NCBI GenBank assembly: GCA_005223125.1
Contig: NJBH01000001.1
Span: forward strand, 96,001-160,000
DNA length: 64,000 bases
DNA from: Promethearchaeota archaeon Loki_b32
Lineage (GTDB): Archaea; Asgardarchaeota; Lokiarchaeia; Sigyniarchaeales; SOKP01
Direction: 5' to 3'
Made by a program: the position numbers and the translations under genes. Below the pieces are notes generated by a model. It worked only from the letters and a program-made list of their open reading frames with translations. It had not been told where the DNA came from and did not search any database. Positions 31,057-35,010 of this stretch are shown one piece after another (the stretch's first letter is position 1; every line of letters begins with the position of its first letter).

Positions 31057-31362
31057 TTATCCACAACAACTATTGTTTTGAGGATTTTTAGCAACATATC
31101 GTGCATTCCATAAACATCCACATCCTTTTTTCTCTTGTAAAACAATTGCCATTGTTGGACAATTTCGTTTGCAAGCAGAACATTCTGTACAGCGTTCTGC
31201 TTCATAAATTTCGTATGTTCCGCCATCATTTTGTATAGGGATTCCAAATGGGCATACCTCACCACATATCCCACACCCTGTGCATAAATCAGGATTGATG
31301 AAAATTTTAGGAATGACTACTGACATCCTTATTTCTGTGGTTTTTGACGCTATTTTTACCAC
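31057..31362 (-). CDS. hgcB: HgcB-like 2[4Fe-4S] ferredoxin
   Basis: CTGCGICGEVCP and CTECSACKRNCP, then GCGC and a C-terminal vicinal CC (SCCG); lies directly downstream of the hgcA-like gene. Confidence 0.8.
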   Translation of the reverse strand: MVKIASKTTEIRMSVVIPKIFINPDLCTGCGICGEVCPFGIPIQNDGGTYEIYEAERCTECSACKRNCPTMAIVLQEKKGCGCLWNARYVAKNPQNNSCCG

Positions 31363-31419: not shown

Positions 31420-33108
31420 CTAAAATATTAGGTAAAAAATAATACCTATAGCTAAGGTTATTAGGCTAATTATCAATACAATCATATTGATTTTACTAAA
31501 ACTGGGATATTCATCTTGGATTTCACTTGGACTTGTTGCCATAGTATATCCACTATATGACATTGTAGAGAAGAATGCTAACCAAAAGTAAAAGCAAGAG
31601 CTCAACAGAAGAAAGGGTATTGACCCATGAAAAAGCCAAGAAACACTACTTAATAGGAAAACATTAATAGTACCATAAATTAACCCTTTTGTAATAAATT
31701 TGCGAGTGAAATTAGTGATAGGAAAGATTACCATTATTATTGCATTTGTTATTATAATCCAGAGCCAGATCTCACCCACTAACCACAATTTGTTCATATC
31801 TATAGTGTTAAAGAGAGCTAAACCGAGTAAAATTAAAAATAATACAAAACTTGGCATTAAAAATATTTTTCGTATTAAAAAAGTTGTATGCGTTATTGCT
31901 GCTCTTAAACGATGAGAGGCAGTAAATTTTGCCAATTTCATTTTGTCGGTTTTTCTAGCAGGTCTTTCTTTTAAGAACTTGGGCAAATGTTTTGCCCATA
32001 TAGGACCATATAAAACATTAAAAGGAAAGTCAGGAGCCTCACTTTTTAATACTGGTACTGCTATTCCTCCTGCAGCAAGTTGAGGTAAAATTATAGTTTT
32101 CTTTTTCGTAATTTTAGCAATACCCGTAGCTCCTACCGCTTCTATTAATTGTTTGTTCCCAAAATTATCTCCCCGTGCTGCACACCATACATTTATACCT
32201 TTAGAATCAACACATAATACCCAAGCATCTATTCCTTTAAGAGAACGCATAACTTTAATATATGTATAAAGATAATTAGCAGTTACTATAATAGGAGACT
32301 TTTCATCAGGTGTTCCAGATTGATAAATGCCTGGTTCAATTGGTACGTGATCTACTTGTCCTGTAAAAATACAGCGATAGATGCTCATTTGAGATCTAAA
32401 TCCTTTAAATTTTCTAAGACTAGGGCGGTAGTATCCTGGTTCTTTTAAATTTTCATCCTCTACCTTTTTTAATTCAATTACTTGAATAGATCCATGACTC
32501 CATTTTTTTTCTGCTACCATCTTAAAACCTATAGGTTCTAAATAATTGAAAAACCACTTTACTAGAAAAGTACTTTCTAATCGTAGTCTTCTTAATTTTT
32601 TTCTGTACCTCCACCGCTTTATGTTAAATAAAATTTTCCAAATACCTGAAGGAACAAATTCAGCTGCTAAAATCATCCGACCATTCGGTTTCAAAGTTTT
32701 CCATGCATTTCTTAGAAAGACCTGTTGTTCAAATGGCCTAAGTTCTGAAAGCATAAAAGTACTAACAATTAGATCTTTAGAACTATCTTCTACGGGTAGA
32801 TCGCTGATGGAACCTATTTGATATAGAAGTTTTGTACGTTCTTCAGAAGGATAATTTTTCATGGCAGTATTTATCATTTGTAAGTTTTTATCTATTGCAA
32901 GAACATTATTTCCTTTTAAAGCCATTTTTTTAGCAAGAGTTCCTGTCCCACATCCTACTTCTAAGATAATCTGTGGTGCTTTTATCCTTTCTAGTACCCA
33001 ATCATGAACTTTGATATTTGTACCTTTAGTAAGTGCTGTGAATTTTGATTCATATGTTTCTGGTTCTAATTCCAACTTTCTCATATAGACTACAGCGATT
33101 TTAATCAC
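31420..33108 (-). CDS. hgcA: Class I SAM methyltransferase fused to an HgcA-like corrinoid-binding + transmembrane protein
   Basis: The N-terminal ~215 aa have ILEVGCGTG, IVSTFMLSEL and LKPNG. They are followed by PGIY..G.PDEKSPIIVTANY, cap helix GINVWCAARG, LPQLAAGG and YGPI.A..LP.FL. The C-terminal TM bundle ends in MSYSGYTMATSPSEI, like HgcA MNFTG.T..TS.SGV. Confidence 0.82.
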   Translation of the reverse strand: MIKIAVVYMRKLELEPETYESKFTALTKGTNIKVHDWVLERIKAPQIILEVGCGTGTLAKKMALKGNNVLAIDKNLQMINTAMKNYPSEERTKLLYQIGSISDLPVEDSSKDLIVSTFMLSELRPFEQQVFLRNAWKTLKPNGRMILAAEFVPSGIWKILFNIKRWRYRKKLRRLRLESTFLVKWFFNYLEPIGFKMVAEKKWSHGSIQVIELKKVEDENLKEPGYYRPSLRKFKGFRSQMSIYRCIFTGQVDHVPIEPGIYQSGTPDEKSPIIVTANYLYTYIKVMRSLKGIDAWVLCVDSKGINVWCAARGDNFGNKQLIEAVGATGIAKITKKKTIILPQLAAGGIAVPVLKSEAPDFPFNVLYGPIWAKHLPKFLKERPARKTDKMKLAKFTASHRLRAAITHTTFLIRKIFLMPSFVLFLILLGLALFNTIDMNKLWLVGEIWLWIIITNAIIMVIFPITNFTRKFITKGLIYGTINVFLLSSVSWLFHGSIPFLLLSSCFYFWLAFFSTMSYSGYTMATSPSEIQDEYPSFSKINMIVLIISLITLAIGIIFYLIF

Positions 33109-33326: not shown

Positions 33327-33914
33327 TTATTTCTGAAGCAGTTTTGTTGCATTTAGAATGTTAAATCCAAGAATTTCTGCTTGTTTTAACTGGTTTTCTT
33401 GGTTTAAAATATCGCCTGGTTTGTCAGCTACAGCTTTTACCCCAAATAAATCACCTGGAACACATATAATTCCACATGAGAGCATCCATGTATAAATGGC
33501 ATTAAGTGTTATTGTTTGACCTCCCGTTGTTCCACCACCAACCGCAATAGCTCCACCTACTCTCCCTTCTAAAGGTTTTTCGACATCTACCGCAAAGTGT
33601 CTATCAAGTAAGGAGAGTAATTGAGCACTAACATTTAGGAAATAAACAGGACTTGAGATTATAATCGCATTACACCATCGAAACGCATCATAAATTCCTT
33701 GCATATCATCATTAATAACACAAGTACCCGTTTCCCTACATGAGTCGCAGGCATTACAAGGTTTAATTTCTAATTCGCTTAAAAGAAAAATTTTAACATT
33801 CCATCCATTATTTTCAAAAGGTTTTAGAGCATACCTTAAGAGGATTTCACTATTCCCTTTCTTCCTTGGAGTCCCTGATATACCAATAACATTCATTTTT
33901 TTTTTTGAACTCAA
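33327..33914 (-). CDS. Flavodoxin-like iron-sulfur flavoprotein (Isf / NADPH-dependent FMN reductase family)
   Basis: GTPRKKGNS, Isf Cys motif CNACDSC.....C, SPVYF. Confidence 0.88.
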   Translation of the reverse strand: MSSKKKMNVIGISGTPRKKGNSEILLRYALKPFENNGWNVKIFLLSELEIKPCNACDSCRETGTCVINDDMQGIYDAFRWCNAIIISSPVYFLNVSAQLLSLLDRHFAVDVEKPLEGRVGGAIAVGGGTTGGQTITLNAIYTWMLSCGIICVPGDLFGVKAVADKPGDILNQENQLKQAEILGFNILNATKLLQK

Positions 33915-34089
33915 TAATAATTTTGTTAATAGATTATTTTACAAATAATATTTTTTTGATTGCAGTTTTTCTACAAATTGTATTTACTAACTTTTGTATC
34001 CAATCTGTATTTTTTATTGAAATAAAACTGAAAAAAATAAAAATTTTGATCTTATAAATTTTAATATAACCTTAAAGTGAATTCTTTTA

Positions 34090-34125
34090 CTTTAACAACA
34101 CCCTTCTTTTGATTCCTCATCATCA
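34090..34125. repeat. 36-bp direct repeat, copy 2
   Basis: ctttaacaacacccttcttttgattcctcatcatca; the single mismatch to copy 1 is synonymous (GGG/GGT). Confidence 0.9.
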
Positions 34126-34169
34126 CTTTTTGTTTCTTCAGTACAACATTCTTTATCTTTATCTCCCAT
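34092..34169 (-). CDS. Unannotated 25-aa acidic Cys-Cys micropeptide (putative metal-binding)
   Basis: MGDKDKECCTEETKSDDEESKEGCC-stop, with a GAGGT SD 8 nt upstream and its own BRE/TATA plus palindromic operator. Confidence 0.7.
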   Translation of the reverse strand: MGDKDKECCTEETKSDDEESKEGCC

Positions 34170-34209
34170 ATGTAATTACCTCTTTGTTTAAAATTTAATT
34201 TTTAATTAT

Positions 34210-34227
34210 TAGTTAGGTTCCTAACTA
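34210..34227. promoter_or_regulatory. Palindromic operator 1 (putative MarR site)
   Basis: TAGTTAGG-TT-CCTAACTA, abutting a minus-strand CGAAACA-TTTAAATA BRE/TATA-like element upstream of the micropeptide. Confidence 0.78.
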
Positions 34228-34299
34228 TTTAAATGTTTCGTTCCGTATAATTAAGCTCCTAACAAAGATTTAGAGAGATGATAATCTCGCGTAAAACTA

Positions 34300-34764
34300 T
34301 TAGGGTTTTAGTGCGTTTAACAATTTTTGGAGTAATTCTCCCAATATTATGATCTCTTCTTGTTTAATTCCAGGACAACAACCGTTTACAATCGTTTCTA
34401 AAGGAGGGGTAACATTTTTTAAATCTTTCCCTTTTTTTGTAAGCTTAACGAAGAGACTTCTTCTATCGTGAGGATTCGATTCACGAGAGACTAATTTTTT
34501 CTTTTCCATTGTGTCTACCACACCTGTAATTGTAGATCTAGAACAATTACATGTCTCTGCTAAATCTTTAAATTGTTGACTATCAACGCTCCATAATTCC
34601 CTCAGAATGAAATGTTGAGTTGGTGTAAGCTCTAATTCTTGAATATTATCACGTTCCAATTTTTCGTATTTTTTGCTTAAAATATTTATAAGTTCAAAAA
34701 CATCAACAATCTCTTTGGGTTGACAGCAATTATTAGGGGATTCGGGGGTTTTATCTCTACTCAT
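34300..34764 (-). CDS. MarR-family transcriptional regulator with vicinal cysteine pairs
   Basis: LTPTQHFIL, SRSTITGVVDTMEKKKLV.R...DRRS..V.LT.KG. The Cys motifs are NNCCQ, CNC and GCCP. Confidence 0.92.
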   Translation of the reverse strand: MSRDKTPESPNNCCQPKEIVDVFELINILSKKYEKLERDNIQELELTPTQHFILRELWSVDSQQFKDLAETCNCSRSTITGVVDTMEKKKLVSRESNPHDRRSLFVKLTKKGKDLKNVTPPLETIVNGCCPGIKQEEIIILGELLQKLLNALKP

Positions 34765-34806
34765 TTTTTTTTCAGATGATTAGGGTTTTTTTTAATTTTT
34801 AATTAT

Positions 34807-34824
34807 TAGTTAGGTTCCTAACTA
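34807..34824. promoter_or_regulatory. Palindromic operator 2 (putative MarR autoregulatory site)
   Basis: Identical TAGTTAGG-TT-CCTAACTA, abutting a minus-strand TTTATATA box upstream of marR. Confidence 0.8.
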
Positions 34825-35010
34825 TATAAAATTATTTGAAATTTCCACTTGATAAATGATAAATTTTTTTATTTTCCATAAATTAACCTGGAAATTTTAT
34901 TATTTAATAAAATAAAAGAAATATGCTTATATTGGATAATTAGTTAATTTTAAATATTCTTTTTTTTTGTCAATACATAAAAATAATATTCAAAAAAAGA
35001 GGTAATCTAG

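Follow-up and report, generated by a model that had tools for sequence, protein, structure and literature searches.

A microprotein with two vicinal cysteine pairs encoded beside a cysteine-rich MarR-family repressor in Lokiarchaea: a candidate sensor-plus-peptide module

In the SmtB-SmtA system of Synechococcus, a metal sensor of the ArsR/SmtB family controls a metallothionein gene. The arsenic metallochaperone ArsD (PF06953), about 120 residues long, adopts a thioredoxin-like fold and has ArsA as its partner, and in MerA and HgcB a flexible C-terminal vicinal cysteine pair acquires Hg(II). Members of the MarR_ars subfamily sense As(III)/Sb(III) via the vicinal Cys36 and Cys37 plus Cys157 (bioRxiv 10.1101/2021.08.12.456183), and hgcAB of Pseudodesulfovibrio mercurii is under the control of an arsenic- and SAH-responsive ArsR-like regulator (bioRxiv 10.1101/2022.10.17.512643). 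The principle of a metalloregulator coupled to a small thiol protein is known; at the locus described here it appears, by analogy, to be built from a MarR-family protein and a peptide of 25 residues. A literature search turned up no publication describing such a peptide.

In the window (the whole stretch of 64,000 nucleotides from Promethearchaeota archaeon Loki_b32 that was analysed), the first-pass annotation had marked a hidden ORF for an acidic 25-aa CC...CC peptide, preceded by a GAGGT Shine-Dalgarno site, BRE/TATA-like elements and an upstream palindrome. The ORF and all of these signals are present, on the minus strand. The gene (34092-34169) runs from the ATG at 34169 through 25 codons to a TAA at 34094-34092, and its acidic product has the form M-x6-CC-x14-CC, i.e. 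two CC pairs in 25 residues, the second of them at the C-terminal end. The Shine-Dalgarno sequence GAGGT (34178-34182, minus strand) lies 8 nt from the ATG, while direct reading identifies the promoter of the peptide gene (34226-34240, minus strand) as a BRE-like CGAAAC (34240-34235) and the TATA box TTTAAATA (34233-34226). The GC content of the ORF is 34%, versus 22% in its flanks. A gelsolin-domain gene and a GC content of 30% are in keeping with an Asgard (Loki-type) archaeon.

Cysteine accounts for 4 of the 25 residues (16%), which places the peptide at the low end of the range of roughly 15-30% found in metallothioneins, small proteins that lack aromatic residues and have their cysteines in CC/CxC/CxxC clusters. 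The AlphaFold model of the peptide has a mean pLDDT of 55 and no secondary structure, and the peptide is predicted to be intrinsically disordered. The Pfam search of the peptide reported no family at an E-value of 0.01 or better, and the ESM Atlas offered no usable neighbour (scores ≤0.81). Two further readings of the peptide were set aside: that of a RiPP precursor was rejected, as there is no conserved modifying enzyme nearby, and a prenylation signal resembling the CC of Rab proteins was considered and not adopted.

The pattern M-x(2-14)-CC-x(8-28)-CC-x(0-3)-stop has this ORF as its only small-ORF match in the 4.13-Mb genome, and orthologous ORFs were found in 32 species genomes, which bears out the earlier opinion that a chance ORF is unlikely here. 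All occurrences fall into one Lokiarchaeal family (two genera), so that the loci are not independent samples. A six-frame search with a profile detected the peptide ORF in 29 of the 54 species genomes of the genus, with inspection of the corresponding position in G022 adding a variant that ends in CxCxC, and in 3 of the 42 genomes of the sister genus (G and L numbers are our handles for genomes and loci); a truncated copy occurs additionally in G003. The profile search of 400 genomes of the phylum returned nothing convincing beyond the two genera; its sole outside match (G372, E-value 0.012) was rejected for not being an ORF of the CC...CC kind. Scanned with HMMER, 1.84 billion representative proteins yielded only six unnamed singleton relatives of 25-36 aa, hence no wider family, and no record for the window's own peptide. 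Gene callers almost never report the gene, which makes its product a hidden microprotein.

The alignment comprises 33 copies from 32 genomes, 25 to 36 residues long, in which Asp, Glu and Lys are unusually frequent. Every copy (33 of 33) has Met1 and the first CC pair, the terminal pair is kept in 31 of 33, and one Lys and one Ser are nearly invariant; the other positions vary, with many Asp, Glu, Lys and Ser residues. Aromatic residues are lacking from 31 of the 33 copies, a single Tyr being found in L032 and in the second copy of G068. At least 8 separate length changes are distributed among the copies, each of them a multiple of three; the spacers before the first CC pair and between the pairs vary over at least 10 different lengths, always with the frame kept, and some copies have gained a third CC pair through insertion or internal duplication. 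The Cys codons alternate between TGT and TGC across orthologues, the median pairwise dS is 0.65 with a dN/dS of 0.52, and a Shine-Dalgarno core of at least 4 nt is kept at 17 of 21 orthologues. The conservation expected of a real gene, with cysteines kept through synonymous changes, is therefore found: the first CC is invariant in spite of TGT/TGC swaps, and the indels are in frame only. We conclude from these comparisons that the ORF is a genuine coding gene, on which purifying selection acts chiefly at the Cys pairs.

Several copies have individual features. In G248 (L085), an internal duplication in the peptide gene adds a third CC pair. G068 (L087) has a second peptide copy directly before hgcA, with a decayed C-terminus. 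The truncated copy of G003 (L095) overlaps the start of the flavoprotein gene, and the adjoining HgcB-like gene has a different tail.

Upstream of the peptide gene, a cysteine-rich protein of 154 aa (34300-34764, minus strand) matches the Pfam family PF01047 (E-value 4.9e-16; 58.8 bits vs. a cut-off of 24.6) as well as 54 MarR chains from the PDB, and can be assigned by its predicted winged-helix domain to the MarR family of repressors. Its cysteines fall into three motifs, namely CC near the N-terminus, CxC within the turn of the HTH and GCC ahead of the last helix. The cysteine motifs are conserved in the orthologues (n=20): the GCC is found in 20 of 20 and the N-terminal CC in 12 of 20, the remainder having 2-3 spaced Cys residues instead.

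The putative operator is a perfect 8+2+8 palindrome of 18 bp (34210-34227), which shares 2 nt with the TATA box and lies between the latter and the expected transcription start. A repressor site between TATA and start is the classic archaeal position for blocking polymerase recruitment, and this is how we infer that repression would work here. An imperfect copy with 3 mismatches (34248-34265) lies on the far side of the BRE/TATA element and is kept in relatives as a GTTAGGAnCTTAAT-type site. A second perfect 18-bp copy (34807-34824) is located ~43 nt upstream of the marR start and implies autoregulation of the repressor. This second copy lies inside a 40-nt direct repeat of the peptide promoter (34194-34233 vs. 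34791-34830, 39 of 40 positions identical), which duplicates the TATA box, the operator and the early leader of the peptide gene.

At up to 3 mismatches the palindrome occurs 3 times in the window, compared with 0.29 expected, and the whole genome (4.13 Mb) contains 2 perfect operators and none with 1-2 mismatches. An operator with at most 2 mismatches precedes the peptide gene in all 29 MarR-linked loci (the relatives plus this window), and at the MarR-linked loci examined, BRE, TATA, palindrome and the imperfect far-side site make up one shared upstream block, while the 4 MarR-less peptide loci have no operator and a different promoter. Before marR itself the operator is found only in this genome, G001 and G022, which points to the peptide promoter as the conserved target. 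The view of the first-pass annotation that the peptide is the most direct target of the MarR protein thus stands, and the comparison of loci supports the peptide gene as its probable only conserved target. As a separate observation, a third GTTAGG-nn-CCTAAC palindrome of the genome (G000:C37:175546-175559, L043) lies ~165 nt upstream of a gene for a geranylgeranyl-reductase-like FAD oxidoreductase, and may be a chance match.

Analysis of the genomic neighborhood revealed that marR is the commonest of all neighbours of the peptide gene, adjoining it in 29 of 32 genomes, and that the pair occurs in two different chromosomal contexts. One of these includes the HgcA-like gene, which adjoins the peptide gene (loci counted with or without an intervening flavoprotein gene) in 21 of 32 genomes, or in 22 if G264 is counted, in which the HgcB-like gene follows directly instead. 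In 10 species MarR and peptide, with or without the flavoprotein, are found at loci that lack hgcAB, and 7 of these 10 loci share a setting with aldehyde-oxidoreductase-like and endonuclease-IV-like genes; the 8 of these 10 species that were searched for an HgcA-like gene all have one elsewhere. Conversely, at least 10 members of the genus and relatives in eight other genera possess an HgcA-like gene without the peptide. Since the pair persists without hgcAB and HgcA-like genes exist without the peptide, the unit is, as far as gene content can tell, the MarR-operator-peptide cassette, present or absent as a whole and often, not always, heading HgcAB-like genes. Across the genus, the presence of the peptide showed no correlation with that of arsM or hgcA. 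In four genomes (G002, G004, G025 and G026; alleles L123-L126) the site is empty: the same flanking genes, those for a 193-aa membrane protein and the HgcA-like protein, lie ~190 nt apart, and the MarR-peptide cassette is absent.

Clues to the ligand come from closely related MarRs, which immediately precede arsM in 12 loci (one of these belongs to the genome studied here) and exhibit 43-67% identity to two reference MarRs. The neighbouring arsM products score 332-340 bits on the model NF008823 (cut-off 263; 7 of 8 scanned over the cut-off). The operator of the arsM-linked MarRs differs from the peptide operator by one base per half-site, and in G038 an arsM-linked MarR carries the peptide-locus type. 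In the tree, the peptide-linked MarR clade (97/98) and the arsM-linked clade of the genus (100/99) are joined in a polytomy. The peptide-linked clade is never found beside ars genes in the loci examined, and in genomes without an ars-type MarR no operator of either type was found near the arsM genes. From these relationships we favour a thiophilic metalloid signal as the probable ligand class.

The arsM-linked loci have features of their own. The genome encodes a second cysteine-rich MarR (G000:C37:116400-122900, L068), whose HTH turn bears an ACCC motif. Two genes for arsenite methyltransferases and two of the DsrE/F-like type come after it, and the spacer contains a TTCGGATCCGAA-type palindrome immediately upstream of a TATA box. 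In 3 of 8 ars-type loci (L064 in G028, L069 in G026 and L070 in G033) a mini-ORF for a basic product of 40-54 aa, with a C-x3/4-C-(W/F)NPEN-like motif, holds the position of the CC peptide between marR and arsM; no clear ribosome-binding site was seen for these mini-ORFs.

Taken together, we give about an even chance to the reading of the locus as an autonomous sensor-plus-microprotein module that buffers or carries a thiophilic metal(loid). The cysteine-rich MarR and the peptide would form a two-gene module, with the FMN flavoprotein as a facultative third gene. The cysteine pairs of MarR would sense a thiophilic ligand, most likely of the As(III)/Sb(III) type, with Hg(II) or Cu(I) possible; the ligand-bound repressor would leave the operator and the acidic, disordered peptide would be produced, whose two vicinal Cys pairs may bind the same ligand, either to buffer it or to carry it to a partner. 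As the free ligand drops, MarR would rebind the operator, giving a feedback as in a pair of metalloregulator and metallothionein. A weak or missing terminator may allow read-through into the flavoprotein and HgcAB-like genes. The sequence makes it plausible that the peptide is a metallothionein- or chaperone-like thiol peptide. Against the module reading stand the unusual acidity of the peptide and a cysteine content (4 of 25) that is small by the standards of metallothioneins. Adjacent cysteines are poor chelators of one ion, for which reason stoichiometry and ligand of the peptide are guesses. The reading is further weakened in that the peptide's own MarR clade is never beside ars genes and joins the arsM-linked clade in a polytomy, and in that the peptide does not track arsM, and the iron-sulfur flavoprotein-type partner fits an oxidant response equally well.

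Such an oxidant response is the first of the alternatives, which we rank in the order thiol redox, carrier for the HgcAB-like pair, partner of MarR, leader peptide and, last, no gene at all. In a thiol-redox module, MarR would be a sensor of oxidant or disulfide stress of the OhrR/SarZ type and the peptide a sacrificial or relay dithiol, working with the flavoprotein, an FMN reductase resembling iron-sulfur flavoproteins, to protect a strict anaerobe; we regard this as rather unlikely, while placing it before the other alternatives. The flavoprotein gene (33327-33896, minus strand; PF03358, E-value 4.2e-29) encodes an FMN_red protein with a CxxCxxCx5C motif and follows the peptide gene in 15 of 32 genomes, spread over the two chromosomal contexts. 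Models and structures of the OhrR type match the MarR as well as those of any other MarR, and vicinal dithiols are redox-active. However, the flavoprotein is dispensable, being missing from 17 of 32 genomes, its gene is not preceded by the operator in scans of the window and the genome, and the close relatives of the MarR head operons for arsenite methyltransferases and not genes for oxidant defence.

Like marR, the peptide gene and the flavoprotein gene, the two genes farther downstream lie on the minus strand. The first (31420-33108) encodes a 562-aa fusion of a CpaM-type SAM methyltransferase with an HgcA-like corrinoid membrane protein, as identified with NF043040, NF040863 and Pfam. The CpaM model NF043040 gives 135 bits for its N-terminal domain (cut-off 180), and the fusion scores 172 bits on the HgcA model NF040863 (cut-off 275) and 173 bits on the model of the HgcAB-like fusion; its cap-helix motif is NVWCAARG and deviates from N(V/I)WCA(A/G)GK. 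The second (31057-31362) encodes an HgcB-like 2x[4Fe-4S] ferredoxin (NF040864, 52.8 bits vs. a cut-off of 99) with a conserved SCCG tail. With scores below the curated cut-offs, the pair is best called HgcAB-like only, with a CpaM-type domain. Full-length matches to the fusion (44-55% identity) occur in other genera and families of the order, which suggests that the fusion is probably old. Asgard sequences lie within the fused-HgcAB clade; the only member of this clade to have been tested showed no mercury methylation (PMC10083202).

This pair was at the centre of an earlier proposal, according to which the peptide is a dedicated metallochaperone of corrinoid methylation that clamps one soft-metal ion and hands it to the CC tail of HgcB. 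We consider such a hand-off unlikely. It would account for the 21 of 32 genomes (22 with G264) in which the peptide gene is directly upstream of the HgcA-like gene, for spacers between the two that go down to 84-99 nt, for the second copy of G068 that immediately precedes hgcA, and for the conserved SCCG tail; moreover, the three complete MarR-less copies and the truncated copy of G003 are all beside FMNred-hgcAB. Against it stand, however, the 10 species in which MarR and peptide are away from hgcAB, 8 of them with an HgcA-like gene elsewhere, and the HgcA-like genes without the peptide in at least 10 members of the genus and eight other genera; upstream of the latter, in 10 genomes of other genera and in the cassette-less members of the genus, no alternative small Cys-rich ORF was found. 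The deviating cap-helix motif, the scores below the curated cut-offs and the inactivity on Hg of the fused HgcAB-like member that was tested (PMC10083202) likewise speak against it. In its boldest form, the peptide would be the first accessory substrate carrier of corrinoid-dependent metal(loid) methylation, induced by an arsenic-type MarR and delivering thiol-bound As(III) or Hg(II) to the CpaM-HgcA-like/HgcB-like pair, which we likewise hold to be unlikely. Were it true, the Asgard locus would be a self-contained unit of sensor, carrier and methylase, and the native substrate class of HgcAB-like enzymes would be revealed.

Alternatively, the peptide could be neither buffer nor carrier, its target being MarR itself: by forming mixed disulfides with the MarR cysteine pairs, or by sharing a metal bridge with them, it would serve as a co-sensor or anti-repressor. 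The frequent company of marR (29 of 32), the CC pairs in acidic surroundings that MarR and peptide have in common and the joint loss of MarR and operator are consistent with this proposal, but three species (G015, G032 and G065) keep an intact peptide gene, under a new promoter and with FMNred-hgcAB retained, in the absence of MarR, and we find such a role improbable.

A leader peptide is a still weaker candidate, one we deem highly improbable: translation of the mini-ORF would tune read-through of an oligo-T terminator, for example according to the supply of Cys-tRNA, and the peptide itself would be functionless. Runs of T5 and T7 (34031-34043, minus strand), in the form of an archaeal oligo-T terminator, are found ~50 nt 3' of the stop codon, a terminator-like T-rich tract occupies the same place at most loci, and 28 of 33 copies have T runs of at least 5 before the next gene; the genes downstream encode Cys-rich Fe-S proteins, and the overall dN/dS is only moderate. 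Against this reading, the ORF is followed by a convergent gene in G017 and G022, where it ends the transcription unit and is hence not a mere leader, and in G245 and G011 over 450 nt separate it from the next co-directional gene. In addition, no conserved RNA pairs were found in the 3' block, and a codon-sensing leader would have no need of the conserved terminal position of the second CC or of the invariant Lys. The T runs belong to a conserved block of ~100 nt 3' of the stop codon (window positions 33992-34091, minus strand), which is present in relatives too. The block holds TATA-like AT tracts besides the T runs, and accompanies the peptide gene even where neither a flavoprotein nor an HgcA-like gene follows.

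Finally, that the ORF is no gene at all, i.e. a frame open by chance in a spacer rich in purines, or else a non-coding element conserved as DNA or RNA, is hardly credible: frame openness alone is weak evidence for coding, since the purine-rich sequence leaves the +2 frame of the stretch open in 26 of 33 copies as well, and public protein collections have only the six singletons, but the ATG, Shine-Dalgarno site, Cys codons and stop position are kept at a synonymous divergence of ~0.65, every indel is in frame, Rfam reports no match for 33800-34900 and no structure is conserved 3' of the ORF.

A cysteine-rich archaeal MarR with one defined target and one defined operator means that the inducer could be found by a simple DNA-binding assay, and the small size of the peptide makes for easy chemical synthesis and metal titration. 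If the inducer proves to be arsenic-like, the Asgard HgcAB-like genes would be linked with metalloid signalling, in line with what has been proposed for bacterial hgcAB, which would bear on what HgcAB-like enzymes are for. As a free-standing vicinal-cysteine peptide, the microprotein joins a short list of candidate metal(loid) carriers.

Compared with SmtB-SmtA, the arrangement is similar in that a predicted thiol- or metal-sensing repressor adjoins its single main target, the gene for a small Cys-bearing protein, with the operator at the target promoter and negative feedback expected. The two differ in that the sensor here has the MarR and not the ArsR/SmtB fold, the promoter is an archaeal BRE/TATA promoter, and the product is a strongly acidic chain of 25-36 residues that bears only two or three CC pairs, is unrelated in sequence to all families of metallothioneins and is only a putative metal binder. 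As in ArsD, the vicinal Cys pairs are proposed sites of As(III) binding and transfer, and the gene lies beside that of a repressor (an arsenic-responsive one in the case of ArsD); unlike ArsD, the peptide has neither a Pfam match to the ArsD domain (PF06953) nor its fold, being predicted to be disordered in the AlphaFold model. Like the tails of MerA and HgcB, it ends in a vicinal Cys pair, whereas those tails belong to large enzymes and the peptide stands free, with no mer genes nearby.

The peptide-linked MarR may resemble MarR_ars, as exemplified by AdMarR_ars of Achromobacter sp. As-55 (bioRxiv 10.1101/2021.08.12.456183), in its N-terminal vicinal Cys pair and further Cys near the C-terminal helices, and its close relatives sit upstream of an arsenic gene (arsM). 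The described members of that subfamily are bacterial and control arsV, arsP or arsN (bioRxiv 10.1101/2021.08.12.456183), whereas the peptide-linked clade controls, by our reading, a microprotein gene and not an ars gene; the location in an arsenic resistance or transformation operon expected of MarR_ars is found for the related clade (beside arsM, 12 loci) and not for the peptide-linked one. The hgcAB locus of P. mercurii ND132 (bioRxiv 10.1101/2022.10.17.512643) likewise has a metalloid-type regulator directly upstream of corrinoid methylation genes. There, however, the regulator is ArsR-like and co-transcribed with hgcAB, and no microprotein was reported (bioRxiv 10.1101/2022.10.17.512643), whereas here the regulated promoter appears to be that of the peptide gene, with the HgcAB-like genes at best targets of read-through.
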